DNA of 15,506 bases from a virus (lineage: Duplodnaviria; Heunggongvirae; Uroviricota; Caudoviricetes), in the IMG/VR virus record IMGVR_UViG_2703718798_000014, positions 1 through 15,506 of that record; one strand, given 5' to 3'. Positions 492 through 15,506 of this stretch are shown here, in pieces. The notes under the pieces are model-generated. The model was not told the origin of the DNA, searched no databases, and worked only from the letters and a program-made list of their open reading frames with translations. Position numbers and translations under genes: made by a program. Position 1 is the first letter of the stretch. Every line of letters starts with the position of its first letter.

Positions 492-576
492 TTTCTCATT
501 TAGTGTTTTTTGCGGTTCGGGGGTGTTCGTGGTTGTTTGTGTATGTATTTGATATTAAATGAATTATTCTATTTTC

Positions 577-644
577 TTGTTTGTTGTTGTTCGTCGTTGT
601 TCGTAGAGCTTCAACAAAATGTGTGGTCAGTTGTGTGGTCAGTT
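577..644. repeat. Left copy of a ~75-bp imperfect direct repeat (triple TTGTT box plus tandem GTGTGGTCAGTT x2), 36 bp upstream of int
   Basis: 566-643 aligns with 15423-15497 with about 6 mismatches; tandem 12-mer GTGTGGTCAGTT at 621-632 and 633-644. Confidence 0.7.
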
Positions 645-679
645 TTTTGAGGCTGGAGGACTGAAAAGAGGATCTGATA

Positions 680-1915: not shown

Positions 1916-1958
1916 CAAATTACGGCTGTTTTTCTTGCGAAAAATGGCCCTCTAAAAT

Positions 1959-1991
1959 AAATCGTCGAATATCGGCAAATATCGACGATTT
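1959..1991. promoter_or_regulatory. Inverted repeat with perfect 10-bp arms (AAATCGTCGA / TCGACGATTT, 14-bp spacer) downstream of int
   Basis: Arms at 1959-1968 and 1982-1991 are exact reverse complements. No clear U-run follows, so a protein-binding site is as likely as a terminator. Confidence 0.35.
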
Positions 1992-2323
1992 ATATGTGTC
2001 AAGTATTGAAAAAATTTGAAATGTCTTCTTCTGAGTTCTTATTCTCTGTTTCTTGATTGTTCCAACACCTGATGGTTTATCTATTTGTTTTTAATGAGGT
2101 AACTCAGGTGTCATGCCAAATGACGACATTTTTTGTTGCGTCGCTTAAAAACTCGTGACACGATTTCATGAACAGCAGCAAACTCTAGAGAACTTTGACG
2201 AACATAAAGTTCAGAAAGGTTACGTATTCAATTTAAGAGGTGAAAAAAGCTAAGAAGTAATCTTTTCCCGTATATCCACAGCGAAACAAAAATTTCTATA
2301 CGTAATTTTATGTAGGGCTTTTT

Positions 2324-2518
2324 ATGCGCGAAATAAATGAAGATCGTGTAATCCGCGAAAAAGAATGCAGAGAGCTAACAGGCGTTTGCCGCACAACTCG
2401 TTACGAGATGGAAAAACAAGGCCGCTTTCCCTCCCGTATCAGTCTTGGCGGTCGTTCGGTTGGCTGGATTAAGTCTGAGGTTGTCGCCTGGGTCAAAAAC
2501 CGCGAACGCGTCAATTAA
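2324..2518 (+). CDS. alpA: AlpA-family (Xis-like, MerR-type winged helix) transcriptional regulator
   Basis: 64 aa; motif ELTGVCRTTRYEMEKQGRFPSRISLGGRSVGWIKSEVVAWV matches the AlpA pattern TG..R.T.Y....G.FP....LG.R.VGW..SE...W. Position immediately after int is typical of P4-like elements and PICIs. Confidence 0.85.
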   Translation: MREINEDRVIREKECRELTGVCRTTRYEMEKQGRFPSRISLGGRSVGWIKSEVVAWVKNRERVN

Positions 2519-2550
2519 GAATATTCATTCTTTAAATTCCGTCCGTGTTT

Positions 2551-2577
2551 TTGTTTGTACTTGTTCGCGGTTGTTCG
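2551..2577 (+). promoter_or_regulatory. Triple-box module TTGTTTGTAC-TTGTTCGCGG-TTGTTCG (10-bp register)
   Basis: Boxes begin at 2551, 2561, 2571. The same module recurs at 577-603, 15426-15452 and, in variant form, 7910-7936; a looser copy at 514-540. Followed by SD TAAGGAG (2608-2614) and ATG 2624. Confidence 0.55.
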
Positions 2578-2676
2578 TGAAGAAAAGAAGCGGCGCGTAT
2601 GCACCGCTAAGGAGTTTATTTTCATGACTTATGCAGCTTTCAATCTTAGCACCGCCGTAGCTGGTGGACAAGGCTA

Positions 2677-2904
2677 TCAGCCAGGCGGTCGGTTTTTGCC
2701 GGATTTAAGCCGCCGTGGGTATTTCTCGACAAAATCTTCAAGGGCAAATTTTTCTGGTGGCACTAAGCGCGGCGCTGGTGGTGGTATTTTTGTTCTGGTT
2801 AGTTCTTCCTCAAGTCTGGCGCAGGCTTCTGACTGCCTTTGCCGGATGATTTCATCATCTTGCGTTTGCGTGTCTTGTATTGGTGATAGTGTGTTGTTGG
2901 TCAT
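2677..2904 (-). CDS. Hypothetical protein (75 aa), second gene of leftward regulatory pair
   Basis: ORF downstream of and co-directional with the RHH gene; charged, helical-looking composition; weak RBS. No recognised domain. Confidence 0.4.
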   Translation of the reverse strand: MTNNTLSPIQDTQTQDDEIIRQRQSEACARLEEELTRTKIPPPAPRLVPPEKFALEDFVEKYPRRLKSGKNRPPG

Positions 2905-2961
2905 GATACTGCCCTGTAAAGCAATGCGCCGGAGTACCTCACACCACGGCGCTGATAGTGA

Positions 2962-3141
2962 TTATTCTGATTCTTTGGCCTTACGGCGCTGGCGGCGTTT
3001 GATCTCGCCTCGCATGGCTGTAACGATAAATTGCGCAGTGCTCTCGCCTGTTTCTTTTACTTGCTCCATAGCCTCAACAACTTCATGCGGGGCGCGAGCC
3101 TGTAATTTCTGTGATTTGTTATTGATATGGTCTCTTTCCAT
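2962..3141 (-). CDS. Ribbon-helix-helix (CopG/Arc/MetJ-like) DNA-binding protein, candidate island repressor
   Basis: 59 aa ORF, below the ORF-track length cutoff, translated by hand: MERDHINNKSQKLQARAPHEVVEAMEQVKETGESTAQFIVTAMRGEIKRRQRRKAKESE. Segment LQARAPHEVVEAMEQVKETGESTAQFIVTAM fits the RHH beta-strand/helix A/G-x-S turn/helix B pattern. AGGGA RBS 8 nt upstream. Start abuts a triple-palindrome operator. Confidence 0.5.
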   Translation of the reverse strand: MERDHINNKSQKLQARAPHEVVEAMEQVKETGESTAQFIVTAMRGEIKRRQRRKAKESE

Positions 3142-3157
3142 TTCTGGTTCCCTTTGT

Positions 3158-3259
3158 GATTACTGGAATCCAGTATACACGAAAAAGACCAAAACAAAAC
3201 GCTTGAAGTGGATTCCACTTAGTGATTATACTGGAATCCAGTTGAGTGTTTATCACTCA
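3158..3259. promoter_or_regulatory. Divergent promoter/operator region: three related palindromes (ACTGGAaTCCAGT x2, AAGTGGAtTCCACTT) plus IR TTGAGTG-N5-CACTCAA; candidate rightward promoter TTGAAG-N18-TATACT
   Basis: Perfect palindromes at 3163-3175, 3206-3220, 3230-3242. O1 and O3 sit in ~22-bp direct repeats (TGATTA(TA)CTGGAATCCAGT). -35 TTGAAG 3203-3208 and -10 TATACT 3227-3232 are overlapped by O2 and O3. A second TATACT on the minus strand (complement of 3173-3178) could serve the RHH gene. Confidence 0.5.
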
Positions 3260-3338
3260 ATGCAAACGAGGCTGAAAAGGATTGCCGTCCTTTCGCAGCC
3301 TCTGACCACCAACGATAGCGAAAGTATCGAGGTAGCTA

Positions 3339-3538
3339 TGAGAAATCATACCACACACCCGCAAGGGCGGGACTCGCACAACCTGAATAAATTCACCTGG
3401 CGCTTTATGCAGTGCCTGACAGACAGCATTGCAATATTCACCGTTACCGCTGCCACTGAACGCGAAGCCCGCGCCCAGTTGCCGCACGCACATCTGATTT
3501 TTGTCGCCCGTATTCGTCAGGGGGTGTGCCATGCCTGA
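3339..3538 (+). CDS. Hypothetical protein (66 aa; alternative start 3260 gives 93 aa), first gene of rightward operon
   Basis: GAGGT RBS 5 nt upstream of ATG 3339; E. coli-preferred codons; stop overlaps next gene start (coupling). Strand assignment is uncertain: an antisense ORF (3257-3532) covers the same DNA. Confidence 0.35.
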
Positions 3539-3851
3539 TATGTCAAATTACCAGTACCTGATTAATCCGCATTTTAAGTGTGATCATGATATTGCTAAGA
3601 AGGTTTATTCCGCTGCTGATGGGGCTACTGACAATATATCAATGGGTATTGCGTCAATTGGTAGCCTTATGTTTCATGCGTCAGAAAATGAGGAATATGA
3701 CGAAAAGGCCATGCGCATTGATATGGGTAATATCGGTTTGTTACTGGCAATGCTTGGACATTTTGATATTTCGTTACGGTGCACCATTGAAAATGCCACA
3801 GATGCATTAAATGCCATAAAGAAAGCGAATACTGATTCAAATCGGGGATAA
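3531..3851 (+). CDS. Hypothetical protein (106 aa)
   Basis: ATG 3531 with AGGGGG RBS 6 nt upstream; overlaps previous stop. No recognised motif. Confidence 0.5.
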   Translation: MPDMSNYQYLINPHFKCDHDIAKKVYSAADGATDNISMGIASIGSLMFHASENEEYDEKAMRIDMGNIGLLLAMLGHFDISLRCTIENATDALNAIKKANTDSNRG

Positions 3852-3857
3852 ATAATC

Positions 3858-4157
3858 ATGAGAACGTATTTATCTGGCTTGACTGCCAGCGGTTATGCAC
3901 ATCCAAAAATTATCCCCGGCGCTATTTATCGGGATAAGAACGGCAACAGAGTAACAGTAAAATCGATAATGTTTGACCGTGTGTATTTTATTCGTGATGG
4001 CTATTCATTTCATAGCTCGCTGAACGTGGAGATCTTTATTTGCAGATTCCGGCGGGAAATTCCGCCTTCCAGAAATAACCATGTGTCATGTATGGATGTT
4101 GATAAAAAACTACAGGAACTGAAAAACATGATTGCCGCGTGGAGAGAGCAGAAATGA
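3858..4157 (+). CDS. Hypothetical protein (99 aa)
   Basis: ATG 3858 with GGGGA RBS; stop overlaps primase start (ATGA). Confidence 0.5.
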   Translation: MRTYLSGLTASGYAHPKIIPGAIYRDKNGNRVTVKSIMFDRVYFIRDGYSFHSSLNVEIFICRFRREIPPSRNNHVSCMDVDKKLQELKNMIAAWREQK

Positions 4158-5971
4158 AAAAAGCGCCAAATTTAAAACACCAGCCACGTGACAAAATGAC
4201 GGAAGTCATCATTTTTGCGGGTAGTGATGCGTGGGCACATGCGAAGCAGTGGCAGGAACAGGACGGGCGACTGGCTGGCGATAACGTGCCACCTGTCTGG
4301 CTTGGAGAGCAACAACTTGCCGAACTGGACAACCTGCAAATCGTACCGGACGGACGCTATCGCGTGCGTCTCTATCAGGCGGGGTTATTGCGTTCGGGGC
4401 TTGTTAATACCATCGGGCAGAAACTGGCAGCGGCAGGTGTCAGGGATGCTGATTATTACCCTGAAGGAATGCACAGCCAGAAACGGGAGAACTGGCGCGA
4501 ATATCTGGAACGTGAGCGGGGAGATCTGACGGAAAAGAAAAAGGTAGTTGAACTGCCTGTAAAGAAAAAAGAGCGGGTAAAAGACGATAACGCTTCATCA
4601 CTGGCGCTTAACCAGATGGGAGCAAGTCAACGCGGCGAAGTTCTCCTGGCACATTATGGCGGTGAACTGGCGATTAATGCTGACTCTGACACTGTTCACC
4701 ATTACAACGGCGTTGTATGGGAGCCAGTACAGGATAAAGAATTACAGCGAGCTATGGCACAGATTTTCATTGATGCGGAGATCAGCTATTCGCAGAACGC
4801 CATTAAATCGGCGGTCGATACCATGAAGTTAAGTTTGCCTGTAATGGGGAATACAGCCCGTAACCTGATTGGATTCAGTAACGGGGTATTTGATACCCGT
4901 ACAGGTGATTTCCGTGAACACGATAAAAATGACTGGCTGTTAATTGCCAGTGAGTTACCGTTCACTCCACCAGCAGAAGGTGAAACGCTGGCAACACATG
5001 CGCCGAATTTCTGGAAGTGGTTACGCCGTTCGGTGGCTGAGAATGACCGCAAGGCAGATCGCGTTCTGGCAGCGTTATTTATGGTGCTGGCGAACCGGTA
5101 CGACTGGCAGTTATTCATTGAGGTAACAGGTCCAGGGGGAAGTGGTAAAAGCGTGATGGCGGAGATTTGCACCATGCTGGCGGGTAAGGCCAACACAGTA
5201 TCGGCAAGCATGAAGGCGCTGGAAGATGCAAGGGAACGCGCGTTAGTGGTTGGCTTTTCGCTGATTATCATGCCGGATATGACCCGCTACGCTGGTGATG
5301 GGGCAGGAATTAAGGCCATTACAGGCGGTGACAAGGTGGCAATTGACCCGAAACACAAAGCCCCCTACTCAACGCGTATTCCGGCAGTAGTGCTGGCGGT
5401 TAACAATAACGCCATGTCATTCAGTGACCGCAGCGGGGGGATCTCGCGCCGTCGGGTGATATTCAATTTTTCGGAAGTTGTACCGGAGAACGAACGCGAT
5501 TCAATGCTGGCGGAAAAAATAGAAGGTGAGCTGGCGGTAGTGATTCGTCATCTGCTTACACGGTTTGCTGACCAGGACGAAGCCAGACGCCTTTTATATG
5601 AGCAGCAGAAATCAGAAGAAGCACTCGCGATAAAGCGTGAAGGTGATTCGCTGGTGGACTTCTGCGGCTATCTCATGGCGTCGGTAATGTGTGATGGCCT
5701 GTTAGTGGGTAATGCTGAAATTGTGCCATTCAGCCCGCGCAGGTATCTCTATCATGCCTATCTGGCTTATATGAAGGCACATGGGTTTGGTAAACCTGTA
5801 ACACTGACGCGCTTCGGTAAAGATATGCCGGGGGCAATGGCGGAATATGGCAGGGAGTATATGAAACGGAAAACGAAGCACGGTTTGCGTTCAAACGTGA
5901 CACTGACGGAGGAATCAGAAGACTGGATGCCGTCATGTGTATCGGTCACTAATGACGATAGCAAAAATTAA
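4154..5971 (+). CDS. DNA primase/helicase, P4-family (SF3 helicase-type NTPase)
   Basis: 605 aa from ATG 4154 (GGAGAG RBS 7 nt upstream; the track start 4139 is an upstream GTG). Walker A GPGGSGKS in ...FIEVTGPGGSGKSVMAEI...; Walker B-like LIIMPD. Followed directly by an iteron array of the P4 ori type. Confidence 0.85.
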   Translation: MKKAPNLKHQPRDKMTEVIIFAGSDAWAHAKQWQEQDGRLAGDNVPPVWLGEQQLAELDNLQIVPDGRYRVRLYQAGLLRSGLVNTIGQKLAAAGVRDADYYPEGMHSQKRENWREYLERERGDLTEKKKVVELPVKKKERVKDDNASSLALNQMGASQRGEVLLAHYGGELAINADSDTVHHYNGVVWEPVQDKELQRAMAQIFIDAEISYSQNAIKSAVDTMKLSLPVMGNTARNLIGFSNGVFDTRTGDFREHDKNDWLLIASELPFTPPAEGETLATHAPNFWKWLRRSVAENDRKADRVLAALFMVLANRYDWQLFIEVTGPGGSGKSVMAEICTMLAGKANTVSASMKALEDARERALVVGFSLIIMPDMTRYAGDGAGIKAITGGDKVAIDPKHKAPYSTRIPAVVLAVNNNAMSFSDRSGGISRRRVIFNFSEVVPENERDSMLAEKIEGELAVVIRHLLTRFADQDEARRLLYEQQKSEEALAIKREGDSLVDFCGYLMASVMCDGLLVGNAEIVPFSPRRYLYHAYLAYMKAHGFGKPVTLTRFGKDMPGAMAEYGREYMKRKTKHGLRSNVTLTEESEDWMPSCVSVTNDDSKN

Positions 5972-5984
5972 ACTTATGGAATAA

Positions 5985-6213
5985 CTGTTCACCACTGTTC
6001 ACCCTGTCATAAATATCTTTTATATCAGTATATTATAGGGTGAACAGTTATTTATGAACTGTTCACCAAACTATTCACTGTTCACCTTTTTGATTGTTTA
6101 TTGAGCTTCAAGGGTGAACAGTGGTGAACAGTTGGTGAATAGTTTTTGTGAAACTGTTCACCCCTTAACATTATGAATTAAAAGATAAAATATCAAAAGG
6201 TGAACAGGTGAAG
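5985..6213. repeat. Replication origin: at least 9 exact copies of the octamer core TGTTCACC / GGTGAACA in both orientations (plus degenerate copies), flanking an AT-rich segment
   Basis: Direct (CTGTTCACC) at 5985, 5995, 6059, 6078, 6154, with degenerate 6071. Inverted (GGTGAACAG) at 6039, 6113, 6123, 6199, with degenerate 6134 and 6208. AT-rich 6010-6038. Octamer matches the P4 ori/crr type I iteron as I recall it. Confidence 0.75.
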
Positions 6214-6258
6214 GGTTAAAACGCAAAAATTTTAATTTACTGCTGTGAGATAAAGCCT

Positions 6259-6504
6259 ATGACAGCGAAGCACACAAAAAAATCACAATCGCACGCCCTT
6301 GATTTGACGGAACACTGGTTAAGGGTGTCGATAAAAATCATCGACCGCAACGCCGGGGAAGGATATGCGAAAGCACATCCCGAACTGATTAGCGCATTCA
6401 TGACAACGGCAGCTGCAAACTTTGCCACGCTGACAGAACGGGAGATTGCCGAAGCGGAACAGGTAACAACCATCAACGTTAAAACCGGAGAGGTGGAATC
6501 ATGA
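6259..6504 (+). CDS. Hypothetical protein (81 aa)
   Basis: First ORF after ori; no clear RBS; stop overlaps next start. Confidence 0.45.
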   Translation: MTAKHTKKSQSHALDLTEHWLRVSIKIIDRNAGEGYAKAHPELISAFMTTAAANFATLTEREIAEAEQVTTINVKTGEVES

Positions 6505-6806
6505 GCGAACCAAAATTTGGTGAAAAATTTTACAAGCACAACGGACGGATCACGATTCTGCAAATAAGCGCAGCTACACCAGGCTGGTGGGTTGAAACAG
6601 ACGAAGGATCCTCACCTGTGGCATCATGGGCGCTTTGTGTGCTTAGTTACCCTGACCGCGATGTGTATCAGGATATTCTGCCTGTGATATCCACTGACAA
6701 AGGCATGAAACCCGTAGACATCAAAAACATGGGTTTTCAGTGTGTAATGCTCACTGAAAAAATGATGGAAGAGATGAAAAAGAACAACGCCGGATCGCTT
6801 CACTGA
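6501..6806 (+). CDS. Hypothetical protein (101 aa)
   Basis: GGAGAGGTGG RBS; ATGA overlap with previous gene. Confidence 0.55.
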   Translation: MSEPKFGEKFYKHNGRITILQISAATPGWWVETDEGSSPVASWALCVLSYPDRDVYQDILPVISTDKGMKPVDIKNMGFQCVMLTEKMMEEMKKNNAGSLH

Positions 6807-6815
6807 GGTGGCAAT

Positions 6816-7226
6816 ATGACAGCACAAATTGCAGCTTACGGGCGGCTGGTGGACGACCCGCAGGTAAAACAGACCAGTAAGGGCACACCGATGACGCTGG
6901 CGCGTATGGCGGTATCGTTGCCATGTAGTCAGGCGCAGGATGGGCAGGCGACGTTATGGCTATCGGTCATCGCATTTGGTAAGCAGGCCGACTTCCTGGC
7001 TAAACATCAAAAAGGCGACGTTGCCAGCGTATCCGGCACGATGCAGGTCAGCCAGTGGACCGGACAGAACGGGGAAACGCGGCAGGGTTATCAGGTTATT
7101 GCAGACAGCGTAATCAGTGCCCGTGCGGCACGTCCTGGCGGGAACAGACGCAAAACCACAGGCACACAGGGTAATCAGCCACCAGCGGGAGGCGATGACC
7201 CTTACGGTGACGGTATTCCGTTCTGA
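6816..7226 (+). CDS. ssb: Single-stranded DNA-binding protein (OB-fold, SSB family) with short C-terminal ...DDPYGDGIPF tail
   Basis: GAGGTGG RBS. N-terminal YGRLVDDPQV...; core WLSVIAFGKQADFLAKHQKGDVASVSGTMQVSQWTGQNGETRQ aligns by eye with E. coli SSB (W..V..FGK.A....KG......G....WT...G); C-terminal GIPF resembles the DIPF tip. Confidence 0.75.
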   Translation: MTAQIAAYGRLVDDPQVKQTSKGTPMTLARMAVSLPCSQAQDGQATLWLSVIAFGKQADFLAKHQKGDVASVSGTMQVSQWTGQNGETRQGYQVIADSVISARAARPGGNRRKTTGTQGNQPPAGGDDPYGDGIPF

Positions 7227-7236
7227 GGGGGTGGCG

Positions 7237-7509
7237 ATGGTACATGACCGCATAGCGGAAGAACTCGAGGCGAAAGGCTTTTACCGGAGGGCGGCGGCGC
7301 GATGGGGTGAAGTCATGCTGCTGGTGGAGACAGACAAGGAACGGCATCAGGTTACGATGCGACGGCTGGAATGTTCCAGGAAGGCACAGAAGCCACCGGA
7401 GCCGCCGGATAACTTCGGAGACCTGAGAAAGGCAGTAGATCGCACTTATGCTGAAATGGGTATAGATGGTGTAAGCGATGAAATATGGCGTAATTACCCA
7501 GACAGCTAA
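7237..7509 (+). CDS. Hypothetical small protein (91 aa); possibly PerC-like regulator (tentative)
   Basis: ATG 7237 with GAGGGGG RBS (the track start 7117 is an upstream extension overlapping ssb). Motif EELEAKGFYRRAAARWGEVM resembles my recollection of PerC-family proteins; unverified. Confidence 0.5.
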   Translation: MVHDRIAEELEAKGFYRRAAARWGEVMLLVETDKERHQVTMRRLECSRKAQKPPEPPDNFGDLRKAVDRTYAEMGIDGVSDEIWRNYPDS

Positions 7510-7514
7510 TCAAC

Positions 7515-7538
7515 AGCCGGAGAAATCCGGCTTTTTTT
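7515..7538 (+). terminator. Rho-independent terminator (stem AGCCGGA / TCCGGCT, GAAA loop, T7 run)
   Basis: Perfect 7-bp stem 7515-7521 / 7526-7532, tetraloop GAAA, then TTTTTTT; directly after the stop of the 7237-7509 gene. Confidence 0.65.
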
Positions 7539-7633
7539 GCACCAGTTGAAACGGTATGGCGCATTACCGGGTTTTCGTCACGGTCAGGCATAGTTACTAT
7601 CTGAAACAAACAGACACAACAGAGGAAAAAACA

Positions 7634-7858
7634 ATGCCGATGAAATTTGATGAGATATTAAAACAGCGTGATAAATACCATGCTGACAACATGGAGACGA
7701 TGAGCATCAATGATTACCGCGCATTCCTGGAGACGGGCGCACTGATTGAAAAGGATCAGCATGGTTTTGTGAGATGTGCTCTGTCCGGTGAAATGCTGGC
7801 GGTAAATCCTGAACAGATAGATGCATTGATAGAATTTCTGAAAGGGATCAGGGACTGA
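7634..7858 (+). CDS. Hypothetical protein (74 aa)
   Basis: ATG 7634 with AGAGGA RBS 7 nt upstream (the track start 7556 is an upstream extension). Flanked by two near-identical terminators. Confidence 0.5.
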   Translation: MPMKFDEILKQRDKYHADNMETMSINDYRAFLETGALIEKDQHGFVRCALSGEMLAVNPEQIDALIEFLKGIRD

Positions 7859-7868
7859 GCACGCATAC

Positions 7869-7890
7869 AGCCGGAGCAATCCGGCTTTTT
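7869..7890 (+). terminator. Rho-independent terminator (same stem AGCCGGA / TCCGGCT, GCAA loop, T5 run)
   Basis: Stem 7869-7875 / 7880-7886 identical to the 7515 terminator; T-run follows. Confidence 0.6.
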
Positions 7891-7909
7891 GTCATTTTTT
7901 GTAAATTAT

Positions 7910-7936
7910 TTGTTCGTGGTTGTTCCACGTTGTTCA
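7910..7936 (+). promoter_or_regulatory. Triple-box module TTGTTCGTGG-TTGTTCCACG-TTGTTCA upstream of the head/packaging operon
   Basis: Boxes at 7910, 7920, 7930 in exact 10-bp register; 215 bp upstream of the capsid ATG; third box (TTGTTCAC) also resembles the ori iteron. Confidence 0.5.
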
Positions 7937-8001
7937 CTGACAGGATCGGCATATTTTACCCGAACTGAATCATGAGTATTCTCGCCCGTGGTGCCAGGAC
8001 G

Positions 8002-8049
8002 CTGGGGCCACTTTCCCGCCTGTTAATGTGCTCGCCAATATTCATTACC
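8002..8049. promoter_or_regulatory. Long inverted repeat (11-bp perfect arms TTTCCCGCCTG / CAGGCGGGAAA, 26-bp spacer) in the capsid-operon leader
   Basis: Arms 8002-8012 and 8039-8049 are exact reverse complements. Confidence 0.35.
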
Positions 8050-8112
8050 AGGCGGGAAAACGATCGGTGCGATTGCTGATTTCCTTATGAAAAACGGTTG
8101 AGTTTTTGCCGC

Positions 8113-8150
8113 GTCCTGGAGTTCCTTACTTAACCCCAGGACTTTTTTTT
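8113..8150 (+). terminator. Intrinsic-terminator-like hairpin plus T8 run ending at the capsid start codon (candidate attenuator or antitermination target)
   Basis: Stem TCCTGGAGTT (8114-8123) pairs with AACCCCAGGA (8132-8141) with one mismatch; T8 at 8143-8150; ATG at 8151. No Shine-Dalgarno can fit between hairpin and ATG. Confidence 0.5.
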
Positions 8151-9308
8151 ATGCCGAGAATAATCGAATTACGCCAGCAGAAAACCGCCATTAAAAATCA
8201 GATGCGCGACATGCTGGAGAACGCGGAAAAAGAAAACCGCAGCCTTAACGATGCAGAGGGCGCAAAATTTGACGAATTACGCGCTAAAGCTGAATCCCTC
8301 GATAAAGACATTTCCCGCCTTGAAGCCATTGCAGACGAAGAGCGCAGCAAGCCAGGTAAAAGCAGCCAGACCACTGACCCGGCAGAACTCCGCAACTACA
8401 TCCTGACAGGTGAAACCCGCGCATTAAGTACAGGCGTTCCCGCTGATGGTGGTTATACCGTTATCCCCGAACTGAACACCGAAATCATGCGAATGCTGAC
8501 GGATGAATCCACCATGCGCCGCATCTGTACCGTGAAGAAAATCAGCAGCAACGAGTTTAAGCAGCTTGTTTCCGCTGGCGGTGCGACCGTTAACCACGGT
8601 GAAGAGGGTAAGACACGCGAACAGACCAGCACCCCGCAGATTAACGAGGTGAGCATTAAGCTGTATCCGGTCTATGCGTACCCGCGCACCACACAGGAAA
8701 TCGTGGATTTTTCCGATGTGGACATCCTTTCATGGCTGACGGGTGAGATTGGCGACACCTTCACGGAAACCGAAGAAAGCGATCTGGTTGTGGGCGACGG
8801 TGACAAAAAAGCAAAAGGTTTTTTATCCGTACCCCGTGCAGAGAAGAACGACAAAGAGCGTGATTTTGGTACGTTGCAGGTAATTAAACCTTCCGAATCT
8901 CTGGCGTGGACATCTGCGGACCCGCTGATCGACCTGAAATTTGCATTACGTAAAAAATACCGCAAAAACGCGGTCTGGGTGGTTAACTCCACGACGGCGG
9001 CAAAACTTCAGAAGGTGAAGAACGCGAACGGTGATTACATCTGGCGCGACCGTTTACAGGCTGGTGATCCTGATACGTTGCTGGGCCTTCCGGTCGAATA
9101 TCTGGAGTTTATGCCTGATAACGTTATTGCCCTGGGTGACTTCAAACGCGGTTACTACATTGTTGATCACGAAACAGGTGTTCGCACCAGACCGGACAAC
9201 CTCACAGAGCCGGGCTTCATCAAAATTTTCACGCAGAAATATTTAGGCGGTGGCGTGGTGGATTCGAACGCGATCAAGATTCTGGAACTGCCACAGGACG
9301 ACGATTAA
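8151..9308 (+). CDS. Major capsid protein, HK97 fold, with N-terminal delta (scaffold-like) domain
   Basis: 385 aa from ATG 8151 (the track start 8106 is an upstream TTG). N-terminal coiled-coil-like IELRQQKTAIKNQMRDMLENAEKENRSLNDAEGAKFDELRAKAESLDKDISRLEA; C-terminal half resembles HK97 gp5 by eye (...GDYIWRD...LLGLPVEY...GDFKRGYYIVDHETG...). Confidence 0.9.
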   Translation: MPRIIELRQQKTAIKNQMRDMLENAEKENRSLNDAEGAKFDELRAKAESLDKDISRLEAIADEERSKPGKSSQTTDPAELRNYILTGETRALSTGVPADGGYTVIPELNTEIMRMLTDESTMRRICTVKKISSNEFKQLVSAGGATVNHGEEGKTREQTSTPQINEVSIKLYPVYAYPRTTQEIVDFSDVDILSWLTGEIGDTFTETEESDLVVGDGDKKAKGFLSVPRAEKNDKERDFGTLQVIKPSESLAWTSADPLIDLKFALRKKYRKNAVWVVNSTTAAKLQKVKNANGDYIWRDRLQAGDPDTLLGLPVEYLEFMPDNVIALGDFKRGYYIVDHETGVRTRPDNLTEPGFIKIFTQKYLGGGVVDSNAIKILELPQDDD

Positions 9309-9318
9309 CAGCATACAG

Positions 9319-9347
9319 AAGGGGCTTAAAAGCCCCTTTAGTGTTTT
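9319..9347 (+). terminator. Stem-loop (AAGGGGCTT / AAGCCCCTT) after the capsid gene; partial terminator or stability element
   Basis: Perfect 9-bp inverted repeat 9319-9327 / 9330-9338, followed by T-rich TTTAGTGTTTT; sits between capsid stop and protease start. Confidence 0.4.
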
Positions 9348-9920
9348 ATGGGTGAAAAAATTATGAAGAGTATGGAAATCCGGTCATCGGAAATCACCAC
9401 CAGCGCCAGCAACACGCTTACAGGCTACGTTGTTCGCTGGGATAAGCTTTCAGAGCTGCTATGGGGGGAGTTTTACGAAAAATTCCAGCGGGGAGCGTTT
9501 ACTGAATGGCTTGCGGCGGGTAATGACGTTCGCGGCCTGTATGAGCATGACCACAGCATGTTGCTGGGGCGTACCCGTTCCGGCACGCTGAAACTGGAAG
9601 AGGACGAAACAGGGTTACGCTTTGAACTGACCCCACCGGATACCAGTACAGGGCGCGACGTTATCGAACTGGTTAAGCGTGGGGACATCTCGGGGATGAG
9701 CTTTGGCTTTCGCTCCCGTAAGGATGTATGGGATACCACAACAGATCCATGCGTGCGCACCGTGCTGGTGGCGGAACTGTACGAAATTACCGTTACATCG
9801 GTACCGGCTTACCCCGATTCCGGCGTGGAGCTGGCCCGCCGTTCCCTGTATGAGCAGCACCCCGAAAAAATGCCGCGTGCGGATAATCGCCGCTGGTGGG
9901 TGGATTTAGCGGGGGTGTGA
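9348..9920 (+). CDS. Prohead maturation protease, HK97 family (peptidase S78)
   Basis: Motifs TGYVVRWD, YEHDHSMLLGRTRSGTL, GRDVIELVKRGDISGMSFGF, ITVTSVPAYPDSG match the HK97 gp4-type protease pattern. Start ambiguous (ATG at 9348, 9363 or 9372). Confidence 0.85.
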   Translation: MGEKIMKSMEIRSSEITTSASNTLTGYVVRWDKLSELLWGEFYEKFQRGAFTEWLAAGNDVRGLYEHDHSMLLGRTRSGTLKLEEDETGLRFELTPPDTSTGRDVIELVKRGDISGMSFGFRSRKDVWDTTTDPCVRTVLVAELYEITVTSVPAYPDSGVELARRSLYEQHPEKMPRADNRRWWVDLAGV

Positions 9921-9921
9921 T

Positions 9922-11133
9922 ATGTGGCTTTTCAGAAGAAAAAAAGAGCAGCGCAGCATGACGCTTGATGAATTTATGGCGCTGGCTGGCACATCGAACA
10001 CGGGGGCGGGTGAGTACGTATCATCGGGGACAGCGGAATCACTGCCCGCCGTCATGAACGCCGTGACGGTCATCTCTGAGGCGGTGGCTACCATGCCGTG
10101 TTACCTGTACCTGGTACGCAATGAGAAGGGTAAGGAGGCCCGCGAGTGGCTTGATTCTCATCCGGTCGATCATATCCTCAACGAGCGCCCGAACGCATGG
10201 CAAACCCCCTACCAGTTTAAGCGAATGATGATCCGCCACTGCCTGTTAAACGGTAATGCTTACGCGGTGATTCAGTGGGGGCGTGATGGTTTTCCGGCGG
10301 CTTTACATCCTTACCCGCCGCAGTCGGTGAACGTGGAGCAGACAGGAGAACACAACTGGCGCTATTGCATCACTGACGCCTACACCGGAAACACCCGCAA
10401 CTATTTACCGTGGGAAGTACTTCACCTTCGTTACTCCACGGATGACGGCTTTATGGGGCGCTCACCTGTAACCATCTGCCGCGAATCGCTGGGGCTTGGG
10501 CTGGCCCAACAACGCCACGGCGCGAGCGTGATGCGTGATGGCATGATGGCGGCAGGGGTTATCACGTCAGGCGAATGGCTGGACGGCGTGAAAGGCAAAC
10601 AGGCATTAGCCGCACTGGAACGCTACAAAGGGGCCAGAAACGCCGGAAAAACGCCCATCCTTGAAGGGGGCATGAGTTACCAGCAGCTGGGCATGAGTAA
10701 CCAGGACGCCGAATGGCTGGCCTCCCGTCGCTTCACCATTGAAGACATCGCCCGAATGTTCAACGTCTCGCCGATTTTTCTGCAGGAATACAGCAACAGC
10801 ACCTACAGCAATTTCAGCGAGGCAAGCCGCGCATTTCTCACCATGACGATGCGCCCGTGGCTGGCGAACTTTGAGCAGCAGATAAAAAACGCCTTGCTGG
10901 TGGTCTCGCCTGTACCTGGTATCCGGTATCAGGTGGAGTTTGACAGCGCGGACCTGTTACGGGCCACACCTGGCGAACGCTTTGCCACCTATGAGCGAGG
11001 CATCAAATCCGGTGTTATGTGCCCGAACGAAGCCCGCGAACGAGAAGGGTTGTCTCCGCGTGATGGTGGTGATGAGTTCAGCCAGGCATGGAAACAGGAA
11101 GTAAAAATCAGCGAGGGAGAAAAACCGGAATGA
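9922..11133 (+). CDS. Portal protein, HK97 family
   Basis: 403 aa; portal-like motifs ERPNAWQTPYQF, LLNGNAYAVIQW, GRSPVTICRESLGLGLA, DAEWLASRRFTIEDIARMFNVSPIFL, NEAREREGL. GGGGGTG RBS; position after protease. Confidence 0.9.
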   Translation: MWLFRRKKEQRSMTLDEFMALAGTSNTGAGEYVSSGTAESLPAVMNAVTVISEAVATMPCYLYLVRNEKGKEAREWLDSHPVDHILNERPNAWQTPYQFKRMMIRHCLLNGNAYAVIQWGRDGFPAALHPYPPQSVNVEQTGEHNWRYCITDAYTGNTRNYLPWEVLHLRYSTDDGFMGRSPVTICRESLGLGLAQQRHGASVMRDGMMAAGVITSGEWLDGVKGKQALAALERYKGARNAGKTPILEGGMSYQQLGMSNQDAEWLASRRFTIEDIARMFNVSPIFLQEYSNSTYSNFSEASRAFLTMTMRPWLANFEQQIKNALLVVSPVPGIRYQVEFDSADLLRATPGERFATYERGIKSGVMCPNEAREREGLSPRDGGDEFSQAWKQEVKISEGEKPE

Positions 11134-11468
11134 ACATAGGGCGACTGCGTGACAGGGTAACGATTCAGACCCTGAAACAGACCAGAGCCATGACGGGCGA
11201 AATACTCGAAACGTGGGAGGACGGTCACACACTCTGGGCAAGCGTGAACATGGTCAGCAGCAAGGAGGCCATTTCATCGGGTGCAGAGCTGGCGATTGGT
11301 ACCGTAAGGATCTGGATACGGTACCGGAAGGACATCAACGCCACCAGCCGGATAAAGGTCAATACGGGGCCGCTGGCGGGGCGTGTACTGAATATCATCG
11401 GGCAGCCGCTGCCGGATGCCGCCAGGACACGCCTTGAAATTCTTTGTCGTGAGGGCGCGGAAAAATGA
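11130..11468 (+). CDS. Head closure / head-tail joining protein (Phage_H_T_join-like)
   Basis: 112 aa from ATG 11130 (ATGA overlap with portal stop; the track start 11088 is an upstream extension). N-terminus MNIGRLRDRVTIQ and ...WASV...IRYRKDI... fit the head-tail joining family pattern. Confidence 0.7.
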   Translation: MNIGRLRDRVTIQTLKQTRAMTGEILETWEDGHTLWASVNMVSSKEAISSGAELAIGTVRIWIRYRKDINATSRIKVNTGPLAGRVLNIIGQPLPDAARTRLEILCREGAEK

Positions 11469-11761
11469 CAGAAGAACTTATCACCCTGGAAGAAGTGAAA
11501 CTCCATTGCCGCATCGATGGCGACGAGGAAGACCAGTTAATCAGCGGATACATTGCCGCATCGCTTGAGGCGTGCCAGATACACATAGGCAGGCGCTTTG
11601 ATGACGGGCTGGAGTTCACGCCAGCCATAAAGATTGGCTGCATGATGTTTATCGCTCACCTGTATGAGAATCGCCAGATTGTCGCGGATAACGCAAAAAC
11701 ACACGTACCCATGACGATTGGCGCACTCTGGACGGCTTACCGTGATGTGGGGGTGTACTGA
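11465..11761 (+). CDS. gp6-like head-tail connector (DNA-packaging) protein
   Basis: 98 aa; N-terminus LITLEEVKLHCRIDGDEEDQLISGYIAASLEACQIHIGRRF matches the gp6-like connector pattern; start overlaps previous stop. Confidence 0.7.
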   Translation: MTEELITLEEVKLHCRIDGDEEDQLISGYIAASLEACQIHIGRRFDDGLEFTPAIKIGCMMFIAHLYENRQIVADNAKTHVPMTIGALWTAYRDVGVY

Positions 11762-12201
11762 TGCCGTGGCAACCATTAAGACGATGTACAGAACCAGGCT
11801 GCAACAGGCGCGTGAAGTCCGGCAAGTGTGAGGAGCACAGACGCAGCGCACGCCAGCAGCAGGACAGCCGGAGAGGCAGCAGCAGGGAGCGAGGGTATAC
11901 GAGGCAGTGGGAGAAATACCGCGCCATGTATCTGAGTAAAAACCCGTTATGTGCGCATTGCCTGGAAAAAGGAATATACACGCCCGCCGTGGTGGTGGAT
12001 CACATTATCCCAATCGATGGCGGTAATGATGTTCTCTTCTGGCCTGAGTGGAATCATCAGCCATTGTGCCAGGCGTGTCATAACCAGAAAACGAAATGGC
12101 TTGATCCGTCCACAAAAAACAAGCGTGCTGCGGGTGGATTCCGTGAGGAGGAAGAACGGGCCGCTAACCGCAATAACTGGATGTATGGCGCTGATGAATG
12201 A
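11761..12201 (+). CDS. HNH endonuclease (packaging-associated)
   Basis: 146 aa; zinc-finger/HNH signature CTEPGCNRRVKSGKCEEH...NPLCAHCL...VDHIIPIDGGND...NHQPLCQACHNQKT. Position just upstream of the terminase genes is typical of HNH/cos-packaging HK97-like heads. Confidence 0.85.
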   Translation: MPWQPLRRCTEPGCNRRVKSGKCEEHRRSARQQQDSRRGSSRERGYTRQWEKYRAMYLSKNPLCAHCLEKGIYTPAVVVDHIIPIDGGNDVLFWPEWNHQPLCQACHNQKTKWLDPSTKNKRAAGGFREEEERAANRNNWMYGADE

Positions 12202-12367
12202 GCGGGAACAAAACCGCCTTATCCGTGGACTTATAAGGCAGCGTGACGCATGGAAGGCACAGGAAACAGGGCATAAAGATAAAGCATCAGGACGCGCAGA
12301 ACGCATCACAGCGACGCGATTAAACGACCGTGACCGCGAGGTTATGGAATGTTTCCGCAATCGCTGA
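12194..12367 (+). CDS. Possible small basic protein (57 aa) between HNH and cos candidate
   Basis: ATG 12194 (or 12185), weak RBS, overlaps HNH stop. Product MNEREQNRLIRGLIRQRDAWKAQETGHK... The track ORF 11951-12367 is an upstream extension overlapping HNH. Confidence 0.3.
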   Translation: MNEREQNRLIRGLIRQRDAWKAQETGHKDKASGRAERITATRLNDRDREVMECFRNR

Positions 12368-12370
12368 TGA

Positions 12371-12489
12371 GGCAGCCGGACGGGGTGGGGGGAGTTTTCA
12401 GGACGAACCCGACCCCGCCCAGAACCGAACGCCTCCTCAAATTTTTATGCACGGGAATTTTTTGAAAAATAATCTGGCGAAAAATAAGC
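12371..12489. other. Candidate cos (terminase recognition/cleavage) region: G-rich imperfect inverted repeat followed by AT-rich A-tract DNA
   Basis: GGACGGGGTGGGG (12378-12390) and CCCGACCCCGCCC (12408-12420) are imperfect inverse complements; then AAATTTTTATGCACGGGAATTTTTTGAAAAATAAT. Located between HNH and TerS as in HK97-like cos phages. Confidence 0.35.
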
Positions 12490-12846
12490 ATGGCAAGACC
12501 ACCGAAAGTCCCCGCCTACCTGGATGACATCGCCGTGAAGCAGTGGCGGGAAAAATCGCGGCAGCTTGCGGAACGGGGAGACCTGACCCCCGCCGACTGG
12601 AGCAATCTGGAACTGTATTGTGTCAACTACTCCATTTACCGGAAAGCCGTTGCAGACCTTGCGGCGCGCGGGTTCAGCATTGTTAACAGTCAGGGCGGCG
12701 AGAGCAGAAACCCCGCATTAAGCGCAAAATCCGACGCTGAAAGAGTGATGATAAAAATGGCCTCCTTGCTCGGTTTTGACCCGATAAGCCGCCGTAAAAA
12801 TCCACCGGAAACAGAAGAAGAGGACGAGCTTGACCGCCTGGAATAA
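12490..12846 (+). CDS. terS: Terminase small subunit (P27 / HK97 gp1 family)
   Basis: 118 aa; pattern ...AVKQWREKSRQLAERGDLTPADWSNLELYCVNYSIYRKAVADL...SRNPALSAKSDAERVMIKMASLLGFDPISRRK matches P27-family small terminase; stop overlaps TerL start. Confidence 0.85.
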   Translation: MARPPKVPAYLDDIAVKQWREKSRQLAERGDLTPADWSNLELYCVNYSIYRKAVADLAARGFSIVNSQGGESRNPALSAKSDAERVMIKMASLLGFDPISRRKNPPETEEEDELDRLE

Positions 12847-14491
12847 GTACGCAGAAGACGTAAAAACGGGCAAAATTCCGGCCTGTAAACGGCTGAAACA
12901 GGCCGTTAAACGGTACTTTTCGGACCTTAAAAACCCCCTTTATACGTTCGATCGTGAGGTTGTGGAGCGGTTTATTGCCTTTTCCAGGGTGTGCCCGCAC
13001 GTAAAAGGGCCGATGCGTGGCAGACCCATTGAGCTGGAGCCGTGGCAGCAGTTCGCCTTTGCGTGCATCCTCGGCTTTAAGGTTAAGGCCACCGGACGGC
13101 GCAAATACACGAGCGCCTTTATCGAAGTGCCGCGCAAAAATGCTAAATCAACGACCGCCGCGATTCTGGCTAACTGGTTTCTGATTATGGAGAACGGTCA
13201 GCAGGATATTTACACCGCAGCGGTGAGCCGTGACCAGGCGAGGATCGTATTTGATGATGCGCGTCAGATGTGCATTTTATCCCGACCGTTACGCAGGCGG
13301 GTGAATATTCAGGCGCATAAGGTGATACACCCGAAAACCAACAGCCTGTTAAAGCCGCTGGCAGCAAAAGCGGCAACTATCGAGGGCACAAACCCCAGTC
13401 TTTCTATCGTGGACGAATACCACCTACACCCCGACAACGGCGTATATTCTGCGCTTGAACTGGGGATGGGGGCACGTCCCGAAGGGCTGTTATTTGCCAT
13501 TACCACATCGGGAAGTAACGTCGTTTCAGCCTGTAAGCAGCATTATGATTATTGCTGCCAGATCCTGGACGGCGAAGAGGTTAACGAATCGCTTTTTGTG
13601 CTGATTTACGAACTGGACGACGAAAACGAGGTTGATGATCCGGAGATGTGGATAAAGGCGAACCCTAATATCGATGTTTCCGTGGATCGTGAAAAACTGG
13701 CCTCAACCATTCAGAAAGCGCGGGGTATTCCGTCGCAATGGGTGGAGATGATGACAAAGCGATTTAATATCTGGTGTCAGGGGACTACCCCGTGGATGGG
13801 TAATGGTGCATGGGCTGAGTGTGCCGGAACGTTCACGGAGGAAGATTTACACGGTCAGGAGTGTTACGCGGGGCTGGACTTATCATCAACCAGCGATATT
13901 TCCAGCGTGTGCTATGCCTTTCCGGTCGGTAAAACCATTATGATGATTTCCCGTCATTATCTGCCGGAGTTCCAGCTACAGAACCCCGCCAATAAAAACC
14001 GCGCTGTCTATCGTCAGTGGGCTAAAGCAGGCTGGATACGCACAACGCCTGGCGACTGCATTGATTACGACCGGATCAGAGATGACATCATGCAGGACGC
14101 GGAGAAATTTAATATCAGGCTGGTGGGCTTTGATACGTGGAACGCCACGCATCTCAGAACGCAATTACAGGGGGCAGGTTTTGAGGTGGAGCCGTTCCCG
14201 CAAACCTACCTCAGATTCAGTCCGGCGGCGAAATCGTTCGAAGTTTTTGTTAACCGCAGGGTGATTGTGCATCGTGGCGATCCGGTGTTGTCCTGGTCGA
14301 TGAGTAACGTCGTGATGCAGAGTGACGCGAACGCCAATATCAAGCCGAACAAGAAAAAATCACCGAACAAGATAGACCCGAGCGTGGCGGCGCTGATGGC
14401 GTTTGGTACATTCCAGGCAGAGCATGAGGATTTTGCTTTTGATATAAGCGACAGCCACCGCCAGAAACTGGAAGAATTTAGCGGGGTGTAA
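12830..14491 (+). CDS. terL: Terminase large subunit (HK97 gp2 / Terminase_1 family)
   Basis: 553 aa; apparent TTG start overlapping terS. ATPase motif VPRKNAKSTTAA (the PRKNGKS-type Walker A of this family) and C-terminal nuclease-like region. Confidence 0.9.
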   Translation: MTAWNKYAEDVKTGKIPACKRLKQAVKRYFSDLKNPLYTFDREVVERFIAFSRVCPHVKGPMRGRPIELEPWQQFAFACILGFKVKATGRRKYTSAFIEVPRKNAKSTTAAILANWFLIMENGQQDIYTAAVSRDQARIVFDDARQMCILSRPLRRRVNIQAHKVIHPKTNSLLKPLAAKAATIEGTNPSLSIVDEYHLHPDNGVYSALELGMGARPEGLLFAITTSGSNVVSACKQHYDYCCQILDGEEVNESLFVLIYELDDENEVDDPEMWIKANPNIDVSVDREKLASTIQKARGIPSQWVEMMTKRFNIWCQGTTPWMGNGAWAECAGTFTEEDLHGQECYAGLDLSSTSDISSVCYAFPVGKTIMMISRHYLPEFQLQNPANKNRAVYRQWAKAGWIRTTPGDCIDYDRIRDDIMQDAEKFNIRLVGFDTWNATHLRTQLQGAGFEVEPFPQTYLRFSPAAKSFEVFVNRRVIVHRGDPVLSWSMSNVVMQSDANANIKPNKKKSPNKIDPSVAALMAFGTFQAEHEDFAFDISDSHRQKLEEFSGV

Positions 14492-14504
14492 TGAGGTCAG
14501 CAGC

Positions 14505-14786
14505 ATGACAGAAGCCGAAATAACGGGATTAATCCGCCGCGTTGCCGGAATCAGCCAGCAGGCTGACGAACAGGCCACGCAGCCGGACAGCGTGACAGCC
14601 GAAAACTATGCGCGTGTTGTTGCTGAGGTGATGCGCCGTGATGGTATAGAACTTAATGGCGTGGATATGCGCAACATACGAACCAGAGTTCTTGAGTTGC
14701 TGGCCTACCGTCGCCGCGTGGAGATGTATCGGGAGAAGGAGAAAATAACGTACCACTGGAAGAAGCCGGAGCGGTTGCGGCGGTAA
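14505..14786 (+). CDS. Hypothetical protein (93 aa) downstream of TerL
   Basis: GAGGT RBS 7 nt upstream of ATG 14505; basic C-terminus. No recognised motif. Confidence 0.5.
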   Translation: MTEAEITGLIRRVAGISQQADEQATQPDSVTAENYARVVAEVMRRDGIELNGVDMRNIRTRVLELLAYRRRVEMYREKEKITYHWKKPERLRR

Positions 14787-15081
14787 CTGGTTGATATTCC
14801 CGACGGACCAAAAATGGGTGGCTACATCCCTCGCTTCTGAGGACTGTTAACAAGCTGCCTGAAAGACAGTCACAAACTACGAAATTTTCGCAGTTTAATT
14901 AATGATCAGCTTAATCGCTAACCCGCTGATATTTTCGGAAACCTCAATTTGAGGAAGTCGGCGCGGTAACTCGCTGAACTTTAAGCAAAGTGCAAAATTG
15001 CGCTTGCTGAATAATCATTATGATTACGCAGATGATTAAGGAATGACCGAAGGCGGAAATTCGCCTGTGGTTAATGGGGGA

Positions 15082-15362
15082 GTTGCAGATCTGCAACTCG
15101 ACCATGAAACTACGGAAACTACCCGTAGTTTGGGTAGTAAGAGTAACACCCAGATTTTGGGTCTTACTCGTGATACCCAAATTTGGGGTATCAGTGGCAA
15201 CCATAACGACTTTCGTTACGGTTGATGCTTTTACCCCATTGGGGGAAAGGTATTACGATAATCATAACACCTACCGAACAGGTAAAGCCCACCAGCCTGA
15301 TTAACGTTTAACCGGAAAAAAATTCCGGTAGGTGGGGATCCCCATATCGGGGAACATCCACC
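15082..15362. other. Palindrome-dense non-coding segment (8 or more distinct inverted repeats), candidate structured RNA or multi-protein recognition site
   Basis: GTTGCAGATCTGCAAC (15082-15097); AAACTACGG/CCGTAGTTT (15107-15131); nested AGTAAGA...ACCCAGATTTTGGGT...TCTTACT (15136-15168); GATACCCAAATTTGGGGTATC (15172-15192); CCCCATTGGGG (15234-15244); CCGGAAAAAAATTCCGG (15312-15328); GGTGGGGATCCCCATATCGGGGAACATCCACC (15331-15362). No plausible ORF. Confidence 0.45.
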
Positions 15363-15422
15363 AGCTTCATAACGGATAGCCGGAAAATGATAACGGTTAA
15401 GCAAAACCGCCAGCAAATTTCC

Positions 15423-15497
15423 CTTTTGTTTGTTATTGTTCGTCATTGTTCGCAGAGCTTCAACGAAATGTGTGGTCAGTTGTGTGGTCAGTTTTTA
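15423..15497. repeat. Right copy of the ~75-bp imperfect direct repeat (triple TTGTT box plus tandem GTGTGGTCAGTT x2)
   Basis: 15423-15497 aligns with 566-643. Boxes at 15426, 15436, 15446; tandem 12-mer at 15469-15492. Homology ends after CAGTTTTT; the window ends 9 bp later. Confidence 0.7.
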
Positions 15498-15506
15498 GGT
15501 TTTTAA

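Follow-up and report, generated by a model that had tools for sequence, protein, structure and literature searches.

How does a phage satellite keep its capsid operon silent in cells in which the leader of this operon is already transcribed? This question is raised by a DNA stretch of 15,506 nucleotides (nt) (IMG/VR record IMGVR_UViG_2703718798_000014, positions 1 to 15,506; the whole stretch is referred to as the window), which was identified by its sequence as EcCIEDL933, a satellite of Escherichia coli that has been described as the prototype of those phage-inducible chromosomal islands that form capsids (cf-PICIs) (10.1101/2022.09.08.507074). A 274-nt stretch of the window including the hairpin discussed below was identical to the chromosome of E. 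coli O157:H7 EDL933 (this being the stretch searched), and positions were converted with window position 7887 corresponding to genome position 1687860 (NZ_CP008957). The gene alpA is known to switch EcCIEDL933 on: it is needed for induction of the element, and its overexpression has been used to drive reproduction of EcCIEDL933 for purification. How the capsid operon is silenced and expressed is not explained in the literature searched, none of these papers describing the regulation of the packaging operon.

Our analysis focused on a hairpin located directly in front of the first gene of this operon, which encodes the major capsid protein. At about even confidence, we read it as the last stem of a cis-acting mRNA leader, in which it would sequester the ribosome-binding site (RBS) and, in the EDL933-type lineage, probably also terminate transcription. 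The result is a concrete model comprising a mapped start, a conserved folded leader, a terminator-like hairpin that hides the Shine-Dalgarno (SD) sequence, and a defined competing strand.

The hairpin at the capsid start

The initial annotation had described a GC-rich stem with a run of eight T residues up to position 8150, followed immediately by the capsid ATG at 8151, and pairing, T-run, and start codon were all found as claimed. The stem of this hairpin, termed P3, consists of 7 bp including five G-C pairs, and an inner 3-bp extension (GUU/AAC) reduces the loop to 8 nt. Its folding energy amounted to -14.1 kcal/mol in a 61-nt piece (z = -2.1) and to -13.0 kcal/mol in the 40 nt before the T-run. 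On both strands of the window, no other T-run matches the T8 at 8143–8150 in length, and a hairpin of -10 kcal/mol or lower abutting at least seven T residues occurred twice in the window versus 0.05 times expected from shuffles, the other case being located at 7515–7538. A generic terminator scan, which revealed 20 terminator-like sites in the window versus 17.7 in shuffles, did not pick up P3, because it restricts loops to 3–8 nt. Together, P3 and U8 display one characteristic of intrinsic terminators, namely a GC-rich hairpin followed by a U-tract of about 7–9 nt. On the minus strand of this locus, neither a gene nor a terminator geometry was found.

The start codon itself is clearly placed, with relatives beginning M(K/P)(K/R)(L/I)(I/L)ELRQQ at the codon aligned to ATG 8151. 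As most close relatives have a T7 instead of T8, an upstream in-frame TTG (8106) is out of frame there. The statement that the gene has no SD sequence had to be corrected, since a weak one (AGGA) sits 9 nt before the ATG, hidden within the 3' arm of P3. With a predicted pairing energy to the anti-SD of -4.0 kcal/mol, it is similar to those of int, DUF4222, and TerL and better than those of the protease and TerS genes, and thus of average strength for EcCIEDL933.

To locate P3 relative to a transcript, we used Cappable-seq data from uninduced EDL933 mapped onto NZ_CP008957 by Zehentner et al. (PMC10469882, suppl. file 6). A start site at 1687918(+), assigned to "phage major capsid protein", is listed there for seven of eight uninduced conditions (PMC10469882). 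Since this site corresponds to window position 7945, 169 nt upstream of the stem, P3 is placed in a transcribed region of the plus strand, and P3 with U8 extends from +169 to +206 in a leader transcribed without induction. Thus, the proposed anatomy of an intrinsic terminator was confirmed within a transcribed 5' untranslated region, and a leader terminator is probable in the EDL933-type lineage, judged by this anatomy.

A conserved folded leader

Capsid-upstream regions were gathered from more than 250 loci, including genomes, viral contigs, and metagenomes. The 206-nt leader of the window folds far more stably than its shuffles (z ~ -5) and harbors two further hairpins, P1 and P2. A P1-like hairpin was present in 121 relatives representing 93 distinct leaders, in which it takes the form GUGGC-A-CUCA-GACG-UGAG-CC-GCCAC or that of the window (Table 1), and P2 follows directly after P1, with 45 distinct stem sequences belonging to several unrelated sequence types. 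Among 28 diverse leaders of one leader type (type B), compensatory changes were detected in three of nine pairs of P1 and nine of ten pairs of P2, with 95.9% of cells paired; this level of covariation was reached by none of 500 shuffles, and slid controls came nowhere near it. In addition, G-U pairs in P2 are compatible only with plus-strand RNA.

Leaders of types A, B, and C contain a third hairpin, P3, which ends 1–12 nt 5' of the start codon and exists in three unrelated sequence versions. Its stems are GUCCUGG/CCAGGAC in type A, to which the window belongs, UGGUUUC-a-CGU/ACG-GAAACCA in type B, and CUGCAUG/CAUGCAG(GAG) in type C, and in each of them the 3' arm contains an SD-like purine stretch (cAGGAc, cGGAAAcc, and gcAGGAGc, respectively). 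A T-run after P3 was found only in type A, namely as T7 or T8 in the EDL933 clade and as T8 in the divergent lineage of loci L127 and L256. Stems, T8, and first codons are conserved between the window and L127, while divergence was seen in the loop of P3 and in the middle part of the leader. Among about 40 type-A sequences, no otherwise intact close relative had lost the hairpin. The AT-rich relatives (type D) revealed no P1-P2-P3 leader.

A search with the Rfam 15 covariance models resulted in no leader match at E<=1 for the window and four relatives; weak microRNA matches, which fell on inverted repeats of the origin iterons (5965–6210), were discarded as spurious. In a search of phage genomes, every record that contained the leader was itself cf-PICI-like. 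Based on these comparisons, we regard it as a conserved folded mRNA leader, not described before, with more than 100 relatives across the Enterobacterales.

Possible alternative pairing between P1 and P3

In every structured leader type, a stretch of P1 was complementary to the 5' arm of P3, and this complementarity was observed in four sequence solutions. In type A, CCAGGACGC (7994–8002) can pair with GCGUCCUGG (8111–8119) over 9 bp (shuffle p=0.002), and in type B, AGACGUGA with UCACGUCU over 8 bp (shuffle p=0.003). A subtype, B', revealed GACGGGA and UCCCGUC (7 bp, p=0.02), with a compensatory change from U-A to G-C compared to type B, and type C revealed CAUGCAG and CUGCAUG (7 bp, shuffle p=0.004). 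The helix between P1 and the P3 arm and P3 itself are mutually exclusive, so that an alternative helix which excludes the terminator is maintained in relatives, as is characteristic of attenuators. At equilibrium, the probability of the P1:P3-arm helix in the window was calculated as 0.94–0.98 before the 3' arm is made, and that of P1 plus P3 as 0.99 afterwards. In L127, the antiterminator fold is even the minimum-energy structure. As modeled, this geometry is that of a kinetically decided attenuator. Thus, of the attenuation checkpoint linked to Pseudomonas AlpA that the initial annotation had proposed for the head operon, the attenuation part fits the data, 7994–8002 being able to pair with the 5' arm and to exclude the hairpin, and the link to Pseudomonas AlpA had to be given up (see below). 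Positions of the leader elements and of neighboring features are listed in Table 1.

Table 1. Features of the capsid leader of EcCIEDL933 and its surroundings (window coordinates)
Feature	Position	Strand	Remarks
Canonical terminator, AGCCGGAGCAATCCGGCT + TTTTT	7869..7891	+	end of upstream early-region gene
TTTTGTAAATTA motif	7897..7908	+	nearly universal 5' of cf-PICI capsid genes; fixed 66-68 nt from conserved TAnnnT
Three TTGTTC boxes, 10-bp phase	7910..7935	+	candidate AlpA (excisionase-type) sites
Mapped transcription start	7945	+	Cappable-seq, genome position 1687918
TTTACC-16 nt-TATTCT	7955..7982	+	predicted second promoter, start near 7988
P1 hairpin, GUGGU-G-CCAG-GACG-CUGG-G-GCCAC	7988..8011	+	GACG tetraloop conserved across leader types
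CCAGGACGC, candidate antiterminator/anti-sequestor strand	7994..8002	+	copy of P3 3' arm, complementary to 8111-8119
P2 long hairpin, UUUCCCGCCUG/CAGGCGGGAAA	8012..8059	+	best-supported helix of the leader family
P3 hairpin, terminator-like and SD-sequestering stem	8113..8142	+	GTCCTGG (8113-8119) : CCAGGAC (8136-8142)
AGGA, weak Shine-Dalgarno	8138..8141	+	inside P3 3' arm, 9 nt before ATG
U8 tract	8143..8150	+	directly abuts P3; T7 in most close relatives, T8 in divergent L127/L256 lineage
HK97-type major capsid gene (PF05065)	8151..9308	+	first gene of packaging operon
Terminator-like GC-rich hairpin with T-rich tail	9318..9347	+	after capsid stop, reaching protease ATG 9348

Promoter region

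The TTTTGTAAATTA motif is followed by three units of about 10 nt, which are TTGTTC boxes in the window (the triple boxes noted initially are indeed present, at 7910, 7920, and 7930) and have different sequences in other elements. In relation to the mapped start, the boxes overlap the region from -35 to -10, and a -10-like TATTTT is located at +8 to +13. Directly 5' of P1, a TAnnnT hexamer at -11 to -6 was conserved in 97 of 98 distinct relatives, with a TTTAC-like hexamer 16 nt upstream of it and a spacer of variable sequence. These conserved hexamers resemble a sigma70 promoter signature with a predicted start at P1, i.e., at about 7988 in the window, relative to which the boxes lie at -78 to -53. 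Position 7988 had been taken as the start site of the leader and was demoted to a second promoter after the start at 7945 had been found; since no start near it is listed among the Cappable-seq starts of uninduced EDL933, we treat it as predicted and possibly inducible. Further uninduced starts were reported for int (window position 315), alpA (1906, 1914, and 1923), and TerL (12616, within TerS) (PMC10469882, suppl. file 6), the sites assigned to alpA lying some 400 nt upstream of its ATG.

The first bases of the transcript (7946–7953, UCGGCAUA) perfectly complement UAUGCCGA at the start codon (8150–8157, p ~0.01), and this pairing is present in the minimum-energy fold. As it is not conserved in L127, little weight was given to it. 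Many type-B loci, including L002–L004, carry a GC hairpin with a T-run (e.g., CCCCTGTCTCTGACGGGGGTTTTCTTT) about 40–70 nt after TTTTGTAAATTA, between boxes and TAnnnT, where the window has TTTACC; it may be an insulating terminator or belong to the promoter.

Weighing of the leader model and alternative explanations

Several results weigh against a leader whose last hairpin closes the RBS and stops transcription. At equilibrium, the full leader adopts the "off" form, and forcing it into the antiterminator fold costs about 10 kcal/mol compared to the minimum-energy fold. P3 and the long-range pairing hardly vary among type-B leaders, support for both thus coming mostly from comparison between the types. 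Most relatives belong to type B and have no T-run after P3; therefore, termination is neither ancestral nor general, and the conserved job of the hairpin is a different one. For a terminator, the P3 loop is long (16 nt, or 8 nt across a 1x1 mismatch, compared to typically 3–8 nt). No fold-switching factor was identified. Finally, Cappable-seq lists very many weak starts (19,975 genome-wide; PMC10469882), and the mapped start at 7945 and the one predicted from conservation at about 7988 are 43 nt apart. A leader peptide or upstream open reading frame (ORF) was considered as a separate candidate and rejected, since by reading of the sequences neither a mini-ORF at 8087–8101 nor an in-frame upstream ATG in L002 is conserved.

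A serious rival, if in our view an unlikely one, is that P3 acts as a translational operator only. In this case, RNA polymerase would read through, the U-tract would serve as a spacer between SD and AUG or as an S1-binding enhancer, and control would be exerted on translation or mRNA stability. The location of AGGA within the 3' arm and the long loop, which is atypical of terminators, are in line with this, as is the presence of the hairpin without a T-run in most relatives; in type B, which has no T-run, control must be of this kind. T-rich stretches running into an ATG with weak or no SD also occur at the protease gene (9348) and at alpA (2324). However, the U7–8 abutting the GC-rich stem was conserved in two type-A lineages despite divergence of the loop, it coincides with the longest T-run of the window, and the terminator pattern is far above chance. 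Moreover, the leader is transcribed in uninduced cells, and nothing else was found that would bar transcription from the capsid gene.

We give less probability to a real terminator that is overcome by a processive, promoter-loaded antiterminator in the manner of lambda Q or Pseudomonas AlpA, in which the AlpA of the element would be the factor and the TTGTTC boxes its loading site; processive antitermination by AlpA is possible, with no finding that positively favors it. In its layout, the locus is similar to lambda PR'-6S-tR', with the uninduced start, the boxes, and TATTTT arranged as given above and the hairpin ending at +206. A second canonical terminator after the capsid gene would also have to be passed. 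Induction depends on alpA, overexpression of this gene drives EcCIEDL933 reproduction, and TTGTTC arrays recur near alpA and the att ends. The protein itself argues against this explanation. The AlpA of P. aeruginosa, on which the initial annotation had relied as a precedent, comprises at least 142 amino acids and eight helices with a 21Q-like fold; its binding element lies between -35 and -10 (PMC7969949, PMC9371919), and its structures are deposited as 7XYA and 7XYB. In contrast, AlpA of the window consists of 64 amino acids (PF05930, annotated as "excisionase and transcriptional regulator"), matched only PDB entry 8c3t, and resulted in no match to 7XYA or 7XYB at E<=1. The precedent therefore fails: judged from these comparisons, the two proteins have a name in common and no ancestry, which removes a false lead. 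Expected of a Q-like protein are about 150–200 amino acids, an N-terminal ring entering the RNA exit channel, and a C-terminal HTH. Neither a Q-like protein nor an antiterminator family was detected in the ORFs of the element in a search limited to the sequence level, and a lambda-nut-like arrangement of boxA and boxB, looked for by reading the sequence only, was not convincing.

The distribution of the boxes also bears on this point. Apart from the capsid promoter, TTGTTC arrays in 10-bp phase were identified at 577–602, 2551–2576 (just after the alpA stop), and 15426–15451, weaker ones near the mapped alpA start sites, and altogether 15 TTGTTC-type matches were counted versus 1.8 expected. 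By its pattern, this placement would fit a double role of an excisionase-type protein, namely promotion of excision and regulation of promoters, and if AlpA binds the TTGTTC boxes, it more likely acts at the promoter. Repetition of the capsid-promoter boxes elsewhere in the same element was seen for the window and locus L186, but for none of about 20 others. As a trend, class II boxes always occur with an AlpA at most 51% identical to that of the window, but TTGTTC boxes also occur with AlpA proteins of 47–50% identity; the latter finding and the missing repetition in other elements weaken the link between AlpA and the boxes. The phrog_1957 product and PerC were rejected as determinants of box specificity, as near-identical proteins are found with different boxes and the same boxes with different upstream genes, and as locus L016 has a ProQ/FinO gene instead of PerC. 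Furthermore, most relatives have no leader terminator to be antiterminated, and the conserved alternative RNA pairing would need no protein nozzle.

It is improbable that the leader represents a stand-alone small RNA of about 206 nt, e.g., bound by Hfq or ProQ, like StxS from PR' of Stx phages, an explanation that would be compatible with the switch-like leader favored here. A start used in seven of eight uninduced conditions, a strong structure, and a terminator-type 3' end would be expected of such an RNA, and in a related cf-PICI a ProQ/FinO gene adjoins the leader; it could not arise from type-B leaders, which lack a terminator. The gene concerned (L016, 2199–2729, from a cf-PICI of E. coli O177:H21) encodes an RNA chaperone of the ProQ/FinO family and is found in PerC's place, with one small ORF between it and the homologous leader; it is a possible RNA-level regulator.

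Least of all do we expect a functionless chance hairpin beside a chance T-run, which is very unlikely: short stems are common and the generic scan hardly exceeded its shuffles (20 versus 17.7 sites), but the specific pattern was observed twice compared to 0.05 expected, stems and T-run were kept while the loop diverged, and the leader shows strong covariation.

Proposed mechanism and comparison with known systems

According to the reading of a cis-acting leader, P3 would be the last stem, or expression platform, of a leader of about 160–206 nt composed of P1, P2, a variable middle part, and P3. This stem would bury the only SD-like sequence (AGGA), and U7–8 would add the anatomy of an intrinsic terminator in the EDL933-type lineage, in which the U-tract may have been acquired or kept. 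Basal transcripts from 7945 would mostly stop at U8 or stay untranslated, leaving capsid production off. P3-U8 as a leader terminator would thus explain that the leader start is active in uninduced cells and the capsid operon nevertheless silent, and the leader probably holds capsid production off until induction. Upon induction, promoter activation, possibly by AlpA at the TTGTTC boxes, would be accompanied by read-through or by refolding to the P1:P3-arm form, and such a combination is the most likely way of relief. As to a possible sensor, neither a conserved upstream ORF nor an Rfam aptamer was found; given its high conservation, the GACG hairpin P1 is a candidate protein-binding site.

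More tentatively, and with less confidence than we place in the leader itself, cf-PICIs may control their whole packaging operon by a widespread P1-P2-P3 switch. The EcCIEDL933 lineage would then have turned it into a PR'/tR'-like checkpoint, opened by a satellite-specific signal on the RNA, e.g., a protein recognizing the invariant GACG hairpin or a head protein exerting autoregulation. If real, the switch would represent a new family of cis-regulatory RNAs specific to one class of phage satellites.

Attenuators and riboswitch platforms such as trp and pyrBI have mutually exclusive helices and a last hairpin with SD and U-tract in common with the cf-PICI leader. Likewise, an upstream strand copies the 3' arm and competes for the 5' arm, and the outcome should depend on the kinetics of co-transcriptional folding. 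Unlike in these systems, no leader peptide, aptamer, protein partner, or Rfam match was identified for the cf-PICI leader, and most members of the family have no U-tract, so that their shared output is probably translational. With lambda PR'-6S RNA-tR' and Q, and with P. aeruginosa AlpA at PalpB-tB, the locus shares a promoter that needs no induction to be active, a leader of about 200 nt with a terminator-like hairpin at its end before the late or structural genes, and repeated DNA boxes that overlap the promoter region of the start, here that at 7945. It differs from both in that no Q-like protein was detected in EcCIEDL933 by sequence, its AlpA is unrelated, and the leaders of relatives mostly have no terminator.

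The leader of the MS2 maturation gene is a long-range mRNA leader that sequesters the RBS, and a 5' hairpin governs the availability of its competing strand. Similarly, the start region of the capsid gene can be closed by upstream pairing, and a 5' hairpin would decide on the availability of the competing strand, UCGGCAUA (7946–7953) being complementary to UAUGCCGA. In contrast to MS2, EcCIEDL933 consists of DNA and its promoter is of the sigma70 type, and the pairing of 5' end and AUG is not conserved in L127. Finally, P2 Cox, P4 Vis, and lambda Xis are excisionase-regulators that bind phased direct repeats. The AlpA of EcCIEDL933 is likewise annotated as excisionase and regulator, and phased TTGTTC boxes, as candidate sites, are present at the island ends, after alpA, near the alpA starts, and before the capsid promoter; in this case, the difference is that other cf-PICIs do not repeat the boxes of their capsid promoter elsewhere.

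Genomic context and further observations

The genes of EcCIEDL933 are arranged in the order int, alpA, D5-type primase, SSB, PerC, capsid, protease, portal, head completion, connector, HNH, TerS, and TerL. The capsid module is homologous to other E. coli cf-PICIs from about 7869–7891. The canonical terminator located there and a near-identical one at 7515–7538, both of the form AGCCGGAG(A/C)AATCCGGCT followed by a T-run, flank a small gene (7634–7858, phrog_1957), whose product carries an EQ(L/I)DxLIxxL motif at its C-terminus. This gene is located directly upstream of the capsid promoter in many cf-PICIs but not in all, and its presence revealed no correlation to the type of boxes.

At the other end of the capsid gene, nearly all relatives have a similar terminator-like hairpin, which probably determines how much capsid protein is made relative to the downstream proteins; the protease ATG that follows it (9348) has no SD.

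Both ends of the island (570–650 and 15420–15500) carry about 80 nt of an imperfect direct repeat, which contains arrays of three TTGTTT/TTGTTC boxes and tandem TGTGTGGTCAG units and is probably the att region with sites for a recombinase or excisionase. Upstream of ATG 2624, which opens an ORF of 304 amino acids with an Icd-like C-terminus (host cell-division inhibitor family), a hairpin (2589–2608) and a strong SD (AAGGAG) were detected. Downstream of the primase gene, the region 5965–6210 is densely occupied by GGTGAACAG iterons in both orientations and represents a probable replication origin.

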